Shown piece by piece: positions 34-711 of a stretch of DNA of 1,983 nt (position 1 is the first letter of the stretch; every line of letters begins with the position of its first letter). This DNA is from Escherichia coli (GTDB lineage Bacteria; Pseudomonadota; Gammaproteobacteria; Enterobacterales; Enterobacteriaceae). The position numbers were made by a program, and so were the translations under genes. The stretch lies in NCBI RefSeq assembly GCF_044324875.1, contig NZ_CP172192.1; one strand, written 5' to 3'. Under the pieces are notes generated by a model, which worked only from the letters and a program-made list of their open reading frames with translations, did not search any database and was not told the origin of the DNA.

Positions 34-288
34 AAATTCCCGCCGTTTCTCGGTTTTTTGAGCGTCGCAGACCGCACGACAAACGAAACGAAGTGTAGTT
101 TGTATGAGTGCGCACTTCGTGAGATTCCCCGACTGCCAGTTTGTCGATCGCGCGGAACAGCTGTGGCACGAAAACGGCAGAATGATTTGCTGTCCGGTTG
201 CCAGAACTGCGCGCTTACGTGGAGGGCGGCGCGGCGCAAAAAACTGCCGACATTGCGCCAGTGTTCCGGTGACACAAACCCGCAGAAA

Positions 289-372
289 TCGGGACAGGAT
301 GTGGGAATGTCGGACCGCGCACGCTCGCTCAGACATTCCCCACCTGGTCAGGGCTTCGCCCCGACACCCCGC
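289..372 (+). repeat. 84-bp arm of a perfect inverted repeat (internal copy)
   Basis: Compared by eye base by base: reverse complement of 322..372 equals 1933..1983 and reverse complement of 289..321 equals 1..33, with no mismatches. Identity stops at 373 versus 1932 and at 288 versus 34. Confidence 0.95.
301..343. other. Nested stem-loop inside the repeat arm
   Basis: GTGGGAATGTC (301..311) pairs with GACATTCCCCAC (332..343), one extra C as a bulge, around a 20-nt GC-rich loop. The same structure exists in the other arm across the window junction (1964..1973 with 11..19). Confidence 0.6.
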
Positions 373-513
373 CAACGCCTCACGGCACGCGAAAAAATTC
401 CGCGTACCGCTCACCGTTCTTGAACTCGTCAAACAGAAAATCGCGGGGCCCCGCGCCTCCGGCGTGGGTTCCGATTTTGTGATTGACGACGGCACGGGGA
501 AAACGCTGGGTAT

Positions 514-568
514 GGTGGTTGGTGTCACGGAGTGAGGCCAACCACCTGCAAGACGGTTTTTTGTTGTT
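514..568 (+). other. Stem-loop followed by a T-rich tract
   Basis: GGTGGTTGG (514..522) pairs perfectly with CCAACCACC (538..546) around a 15-nt loop. TTTTTTGTTGTT (557..568) follows after a 10-nt gap. Confidence 0.3.
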
Positions 569-634: not shown

Positions 635-675
635 TTACTGAAAATCCAGCTCAAAATTCAAGCAAATCTCGCGCG

Positions 676-711
676 CGATCCTTGTATTTATACTTAAGGG
701 ATAACTCTAGG
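676..711 (+). promoter_or_regulatory. AT-rich island with a second nick-site-like motif; alternative dso or rep promoter region
   Basis: CTTGTATTTATACTTAAGGGATAACTCTAGG (681..711) is the only AT-rich stretch in an otherwise GC-rich window. CTTGTAT resembles CTTGATA, and TAAGGGATAACT resembles the TAAGGGTAACT that I recall downstream of the pC194 nick; that recollection is unverified. Confidence 0.2.

Follow-up and report, generated by a model that had tools for sequence, protein, structure and literature searches.

Two inversely oriented I-complex transfer origins very likely make up the long inverted arms of the 2-kb rolling-circle plasmid pB

Introduction

Among the described small plasmids that carry a copied origin of transfer (oriT) and use the relaxase of a conjugative helper—the oriT-only, "pOriT" or oriT-mimic plasmids, such as the pWBG749-dependent plasmids of Staphylococcus aureus and pCERC7/NTP16—most hold a single oriT copy, and pCERC7-type plasmids keep a nikA gene of their own. 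In this study, we analyzed a window (the whole stretch of DNA considered here, 1,983 nucleotides of Escherichia coli sequence from RefSeq assembly GCF_044324875.1, contig NZ_CP172192.1) that matches the complete 1983-bp circular plasmid pB of Salmonella Enteritidis (NC_005002.1) from end to end at 100% identity, and we focused on a 423-bp module in which two 84-bp inverted arms enclose a 255-nt spacer. We conclude that the arms are very likely two complete, inversely oriented oriT copies of I-complex conjugative plasmids (R64-like, MOBP, MPF_I; B/O-K-Z type). pB thus resembles the oriT-only plasmids in its small size and in pairing a copied oriT with a helper relaxase, but it has no nikA, and it carries an inverted pair of oriTs, which in its plasmid family are sometimes of two different types.

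Such an arrangement is already known, as two inverse I-complex oriTs on an oriT-only rolling-circle plasmid were published in 2019 for pBuzz, a plasmid of E. coli 838B (NZ_MF156267.1). The primary pBuzz paper (Moran and Hall, Plasmid 2019;101:10-19) reportedly states the two-oriT architecture in its title. pBuzz is 99.5% identical to the window over the whole length and has the same Rep_1 gene as pB, 100% identical inverse 84-nt arms, the same spacer, and the same orientation; it differs in being 1 nt shorter and in a few substitutions, pB having come from Salmonella Enteritidis and having been deposited earlier as a cryptic plasmid. A citing paper describes pBuzz as a relaxase-free, 1982-bp rolling-circle plasmid with "two inversely oriented oriTs" that is efficiently mobilized by a co-resident B/O plasmid (PMC9282650), and another states that its oriT was acquired from the conjugative plasmid p838B-R (PMC11389934). 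A further relative, pSZECL_a, has two putative L/M-type oriTs (PMC7448864, PMC8765060).

For pB, the value of the present work therefore lies in correct annotation and not in discovery, its architecture and function having been published since 2019. What may be new is limited to the spacer site that resembles a MOBQ oriT, the natural flip isomers, and the explicit evidence that the arms evolve in concert. Annotation matters here because oriT-only plasmids are usually scored as non-mobilizable when relaxase genes alone are searched, yet a one-gene, 2-kb plasmid can still spread by conjugation if it has copied from a helper just the oriT, which acts in cis, and relies on the helper relaxase in trans.

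Geometry of the inverted arms

A repeat finder returned two abutting pairs of perfect inverted repeats, 322-372/1933-1983 (51 nt) and 1-33/289-321 (33 nt). Read across the ends of the window, they form one pair of arms: arm A (1933-1983 plus 1-33) and the reverse complement of arm B (289-372) agree at 84 of 84 positions, the match stops with zero further bases on either side, and the spacer between the arms (34-288) measures 255 nt. Arm A shares its first base, 1933, with the end of the rep stop codon. Shuffling the window 100 times gave longest inverted repeats of 11.5 nt on average and 16 nt at most, which places the arms far beyond chance. The sequence-only reading was right to describe two perfect 84-bp arms that start at the rep stop codon and flank a 255-bp spacer. 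Each arm additionally contains an imperfect internal palindrome (303-320/323-340 in arm B, 1965-1982/2-19 in arm A).

The circular reading of the window is justified by independent circular records with other start points: GenBank circles identical to it begin at other positions and run uninterrupted over the junction of 1983 and 1 (in NC_005002.1, arm A lies at 1073-1156), and the E. coli plasmid pPSJ-42_12 is likewise 100% identical to the window over its full length. The same perfect arms occur in at least eight independent Salmonella and E. coli records from different laboratories and countries, pBuzz included. We considered an assembly artifact, either a hairpin chimera or a contig break at the center of the internal palindrome, and rejected it, because the arm is uninterrupted in these differently opened circles; the concern that the arms might not be real, raised when they were first noticed, can be set aside.

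The arms as I-complex transfer origins

When the first 420 bases of the window were used as a query, thousands of plasmids matched through the arm alone, about 1900 of them large and conjugative. A search with the arm by itself matched ∼3000 plasmids, of which 1893 are conjugative, and the matches always fell in unannotated DNA. In all four conjugative plasmids that were inspected, the match lies 15 to 20 bp upstream of a nikA(mobA)-nikB relaxase operon of the MOBP/MPF_I type. Two of these sequences, in pECOED and in pE16EC0406-2 (typed IncK2/Z), agree with the arm in 82 of 82 bases and lie 15 bp upstream of nikA-nikB; identity is 95% for pPK8261 and 79.5% for an IncI-gamma/K1 plasmid. The position directly upstream of nikA-nikB is the usual site of an R64-type oriT and thus supports the identification of the arm as an oriT. 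Searching plasmid collections, which the sequence-only reading had proposed as a check, led to the origins of conjugative plasmids.

We aligned 13 distinct sequences from pB relatives, other small plasmids, and conjugative plasmids, all written on the nick strand. The alignment comprises a conserved left block, GGGGTGTCGGGGCGAAGCCCTGACCAG, which holds an 8-bp inverted repeat, a variable inverted repeat, and an invariant right block, CACATCCTGTCCCG; the nick region ACATCCTGTCC is invariant in 13 of 13 sequences, both pB arms included. By sequence, the pB arms thus carry the nick region of the RP4/R64 type (CATCCTG/T, the slash marking the nick), on the strand opposite to nikA. The variable repeat occurs in at least four types, among them the pB type (GGGAATGTC.../...GACATTCCC) and the I1 type (CAATTGTGATAGCG.../...CGGTATTACAATTG), and forms a 15-pair helix that ends 8 nt before the nick. 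Eight of its pairs show compensatory double changes among four types, and 92.9% of its alignment cells are paired, compared to 32 to 49% when the partners are slid by 1 to 3 columns; in 500 shuffles, neither this percentage nor the covariation score was attained. The 8-bp helix is paired at 98% in the alignment. This anatomy—nick region, covarying repeat, and 8-bp repeat—agrees with the published R64 oriT core, which consists of the nick region and repeat A, the latter being the binding site of NikA (PMC4743918, PMC9282650).

On the + strand, the first oriT copy (arm A) begins with the 51 nt at 1933-1983, which perfectly complement 322-372 and align with the oriTs upstream of nikA; within them lie the conserved left block, whose 8-bp inverted repeat pairs 1940-1947 with 1951-1958, and, at 1965-1979, the left side of the variable repeat of the NikA type. 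The right side of that repeat (5-19) falls in the inner 33 nt (1-33, + strand), which also include the nick region, ACATCCTG/TCCCGA. The second copy (arm B, 289-372) lies on the − strand, with its variable repeat at 303-317/326-340 and the 8-bp repeat within 347-365. Taking the nick to be CATCCTG/T, 8 nt after the repeat, as in R64 and RP4, we predict cleavage between 27 and 28 on the + strand of arm A, 8 nt past the variable repeat, and between 295 and 294 on the − strand of arm B. Both predicted nicks point toward the spacer by the geometry of the sequence.

Compared to the I-complex helpers, the pB arms share with the oriTs of R64 and ColIb-P9 (IncI1) and of the B/O, K, and Z plasmids the 8-bp repeat, the NikA-site inverted repeat, the 8-nt distance, and CATCCTG/T. 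In the helpers, however, a single oriT lies directly upstream of nikA-nikB, whereas pB carries two inverse copies on a 2-kb rolling-circle replicon without nikA or nikB. The repeat of pB (GGGAATGTC.../...GACATTCCC) also differs from that of the I1 type (AATTGTAATA...), overall identity being 79.5%, and helper specificity would be expected to depend on this difference. A primosome or G4-type priming site and an Frpo-like single-strand promoter of the kind found in leading regions were also considered for the arms and dropped, given the nikA-nikB neighborhood and the nick consensus.

Two slots for different origins

Plasmids with the same backbone as pB need not carry the same oriT in both arm positions. 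With the oriT types denoted by letters, the two slots are occupied as a/b in pRGI01198, b/a in pR15.2267, and c (I1-type)/a in pNMEC-O75E, and c/c (I1/I1) was also seen. A family of 2.09-kb relatives combines c with another sequence: in its slot 2, an I-complex oriT breaks off after the first ∼31 nt and gives way to unrelated sequence, which has its own hairpin (GCAAAGGGGTGTCTCCTTTGGC) and might be another kind of oriT. In relatives with heterologous arms, the spacer is 99 to 100% identical to that of pB, whereas the arms are only 77 to 82% identical to each other, and each arm folds into a local hairpin of its own, which gives a four-way junction and no long stem. The presence of different oriT types in the two slots indicates that pairing between the arms is not the conserved feature; a complete oriT in each slot is. 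The types are thus swapped slot by slot within the family—I1, B/O-K-Z, and others here, with L/M-type pairs known from the literature—and such swapping presumably widens or changes the range of helpers.

Arm homogenization and spacer inversion

Conservation of the 255-nt spacer (34-288) stays at 99 to 100% even where the rep of a relative has only 91% identity, and two natural plasmids carry the spacer inverted. These spacer-flipped isomers, pVCM01 (NC_019127.1, spacer at 1157-1411) and p11-0230.2 (NZ_CP039590.1, spacer at 1071-1324), switch orientation relative to rep exactly at the arm boundaries. In a PLSDB census with junction queries, 76 records have the orientation of the window and 2 are flipped. 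Both flipped plasmids carry perfect arms, at 1073-1156 and 1412-1495 in pVCM01 and at 987-1070 and 1325-1408 in p11-0230.2.

The arms of these plasmids are not those of pB. Both arms of pVCM01 share one T-to-C change relative to pB, located between the two repeats, and both arms of p11-0230.2, a plasmid whose backbone is only 88 to 91% identical to that of pB, share two changes. Across three lineages (pB/pBuzz, pVCM01, and p11-0230.2), the arms are 100% identical within a plasmid and differ between plasmids. Identity within and divergence between lineages point to concerted evolution, that is, to homogenization of the arms, in line with the earlier suggestion that perfect arm identity reflects gene conversion or selection acting on both arms. 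On a multicopy plasmid, 84-bp inverted repeats that recombine or undergo gene conversion with each other would yield both the homogenized arms and the flipped isomers, and NikB-dependent recombination between repeated R64 oriTs has been described (Furuya and Komano 2003, as cited in PMC5714925). Selection to match the helper oriT contributes as well, given that natural helpers have an oriT of exactly the pB arm sequence.

It is possible, though we lean against it, that the identity arose without exchange between the arms, through independent purifying selection on each or through repeated re-acquisition from a helper oriT. The pB arm is identical to the pECOED-type oriT at 82 of 82 positions, the variant GAGTGCGCG of the p11-0230.2 arms is also the form found in conjugative plasmids, and each arm variant exists in helpers. 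The T-to-C change of pVCM01, however, was not seen in the aligned conjugative plasmids and co-occurs with a flipped spacer, which argues for arm-to-arm exchange. The two explanations are not mutually exclusive.

Alternative explanations for the module

Before its homology was considered, the module had been given four candidate roles: a single-strand origin, a cruciform or replication-fork barrier, a substrate for inversion of the spacer, and an insertion resembling a miniature inverted-repeat transposable element (MITE). None of these appears to be its primary function, the arms being oriT copies of I-complex plasmids. That a hairpin on the displaced + strand is what selection maintains, as a single-strand origin, cruciform, or fork barrier, is suggested by folding: the single-stranded module forms a perfect 84-bp stem of −176 kcal/mol (z = −21.9), and pB, as a Rep_1 rolling-circle replicon, must have a single-strand origin somewhere. 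Yet the long stem is confined to plasmids with one oriT type in both slots. The locally folding, 77 to 82% identical arms of same-backbone relatives do not preserve it, so that the displaced-strand fold is not conserved among pB relatives, and two different oriT types in the slots contradict any role that requires the arms to pair. The arm is, moreover, free-standing in ∼3000 other plasmids with other modes of replication, upstream of nikA-nikB in each conjugative one inspected, and the best-conserved blocks of the pB backbone (471-567 and 665-708) lie outside the module. We regard a structural role of this kind as extremely improbable. Still less can be said for a MITE-like mobile insertion, to which we give practically no credence, although 84-bp terminal inverted repeats around a short noncoding core have the appropriate form and an arm with part of the spacer recurs on several small plasmid backbones of 1.5 to 2.8 kb. 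Of 5426 complete E. coli genomes, 8 contain the complete unit, as do 34 PLSDB records; the full-length E. coli matches listed were all on ∼2-kb plasmids (the 34 PLSDB records were not individually inspected), and the complete unit was not seen dispersed or chromosomal in these searches. Its flanks, CTA and CCA, lack a target-site duplication, and large plasmids have a single such arm as their oriT.

The proposal that the module is a substrate for inversion fared better, in that flipped spacers do occur in nature. An invertible switch, with spacer inversion as the selected function (moving a strand-specific site, for example) and the arms serving mainly as recombination sites, would fit the finding of both orientations in natural plasmids with perfect arms, the presence in the spacer of a strand-specific site resembling a MOBQ oriT, and the ability of NikB to recombine repeated oriTs. 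We nevertheless consider it highly unlikely. Unlike Hin/Gin or shufflon-type systems, pB has no recombinase gene, rep being its only conserved gene; the flipped form is rare (2 records against 76), and the ∼65 relatives with heterologous arms are all in one orientation. The arms are complete oriTs, far beyond what a recombination site needs, and a multicopy plasmid with an inverted repeat of 84 bp would be expected to undergo inversion in any case, as a by-product.

The identification of the arms as two oriTs draws here on homology, anatomy, covariation, the genomic position in helpers, heterologous arm pairs, flipped isomers, and concerted change, and from the literature on the mobilization of pBuzz by a B/O plasmid; where exactly the nicks fall, what NikA and NikB do on pB, and why the copies are inverse are our extrapolations. 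Some observations weigh against it. Mobilization is reported for pBuzz only, in citing papers, and not for pB itself, and the predicted nick positions are carried over from R64 and RP4. In single-stranded DNA, the identical arms would form the 84-bp stem of −176 kcal/mol, possibly at the expense of the local oriT hairpins on which termination depends. Finally, the flipped isomers are two deposited assemblies, in which orientation errors of assembly are possible.

A MOBQ-like site in the spacer

Within the spacer, positions 54-128 (+ strand) resemble an oriT of the MOBQ (RSF1010) type. A hairpin at 62-75 is followed by ACGAAGTG...CACTTCGT (89-121), which encloses GTATGAGTGCG/CACT with a nick-like position between 112 and 113. 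The segment is shared by ∼650 mobilizable plasmids, and in five of five MOBQ plasmids examined it is 81 to 90% identical to a segment ∼26 bp upstream of the divergent mobQ, between mobQ and mobC. The small hairpin upstream of the site shows two compensatory changes (GTC/GAC versus CCC/GGG). A MOBQ oriT consensus, NWACCNNTAAGTGCGCCCTYNN, has been published (PMC3832669); the pB site, TGAGTGCGCACT, agrees with the consensus TAAGTGCGCCCT at 10 of 12 positions, and the site of the 2.09-kb relatives and of the MOBQ plasmids agrees at 11 of 12, a comparison that covers this one consensus and five MOBQ plasmids. The additional mismatch stems from an A-to-G change that the pB clade has at a consensus position. 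The MOBQ plasmids and the 2.09-kb pBuzz relatives have GTATAAGTGCGCACT, with TAAGTGCGCACT unaltered in the latter, the pB clade has GTATGAGTGCGCACT, and one relative has a 3-nt deletion there.

The spacer thus probably carries a third oriT, of the MOBQ type, or its remnant, as judged from its consensus match and its homology to the segment upstream of mobQ. What sets the pB site apart from a MOBQ oriT is the extra consensus mismatch of its clade and a nick-like position inside the loop of a hairpin. The RSF1010 nick lies 8 nt 3′ of the repeat, unlike the loop position in the pB spacer. We raise only tentatively, from sequence comparison, the idea that the whole 423-bp module is a three-origin transfer cassette, in which two I-complex oriTs flank a functional MOBQ-type oriT. 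If it were, pB would ride I-complex plasmids directly and would also use the relaxase of small MOBQ plasmids (second-order hitchhiking), and recombination between the arms would both homogenize them and switch the strand of the MOBQ site.

One arm with part of the spacer was also observed, at 86 to 92% identity, on other E. coli plasmids of 1.5 to 2.8 kb (for example, NZ_AP041123.1, 1530 bp; NZ_CP119010.1, 2590 bp; NZ_AP022656.1, 2739 bp). No rep is annotated under the match in these plasmids, some of which share the first ∼170 nt and others the distal part, which suggests that segments of I-complex oriT plus spacer pass between backbones as units.

Proposed mobilization of pB

If pB is mobilized through its arms, the NikA protein of a matching, co-resident helper would bind the variable inverted repeat of a pB oriT and position the NikB relaxase, which would nick 8 nt downstream, at CATCCTG/T. 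The nicked strand would then exit through the type IV secretion system of the helper in the 5′-to-3′ direction, as is general in conjugative strand transfer, and would be recircularized at the same oriT after one round. Copy 1 is predicted to send the + strand (nick between 27 and 28) and copy 2 the − strand (nick between 295 and 294), so that the spacer would leave first from either nick and would occupy the "leading" position for both oriTs.

With each copy initiating and terminating on its own strand, the whole replicon would be transferred. Inverse orientation would be the only two-oriT arrangement with this outcome for the 2-kb replicon, as initiation at one direct copy and termination at the next would excise a subcircle, in keeping with the NikB-dependent recombination described for repeated R64 oriTs. 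The long palindrome would then be a by-product of two identical oriTs placed head to head, their identity being kept by recombination or gene conversion between the arms, which would also flip the spacer, and by selection to match the helper oriT. The two slots would let members of the family combine different helper specificities, as the slot pairs of the relatives indicate; in pB, where both slots hold the same type, the second copy may, speculatively, simply double the number of targets.

Backbone of pB

The sole conserved gene of pB is rep (944-1933, + strand, with the stop codon TAG at 1931-1933), which encodes a rolling-circle initiator of the pC194/pUB110 family (Pfam Rep_1, PF01446; E = 1.1e-84) and is annotated as "protein rep" in NC_005002.1. 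pB encodes this initiator only; transfer proteins, NikA and NikB among them, are absent. Several GenBank records list "hypothetical protein" open reading frames (ORFs) at 104-535 and 299-535, which start within the spacer and within arm B, respectively. We rejected them as genes, which they are very unlikely to be: relatives carry indels of 1, 2, and 8 nt in this region (373-470), and the longer ORF is broken in the flipped isomers.

A scan of the whole window against Rfam (E ≤ 1) gave zero matches, and a σ70 promoter scan of the window found none, with terminator-like sites at chance level. Among seven relatives compared, the longest near-invariant run of the noncoding backbone, with two variable columns amid DNA that varies, is the block AATCTCGCGCGCGATCCTTGTATTTATACTTAAGGGATAACTCT at 665-708 (+ strand), outside the module, which is probably the double-strand origin with the Rep nick region. 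We take the AATCTCGCGCGCGATCCTTGTATTTATACTTAAGGGATAACTCT block to resemble the nick regions of the pC194 family and of phiX174 (CTTG.../...ATAAC). A conserved hairpin region at 471-567 (+ strand), also outside the module, contains a stem (514-528/532-546) followed by a T-run and is a candidate single-strand origin or terminator.

Just outside arm B, ∼45 nt with a small hairpin (372-418 in the window, CAACGCCTCACGGCACGCGAAAAAATTCCGCGTACCGCTCACCG) are 83 to 95% identical in unrelated plasmids of 2.3 to 5.2 kb.

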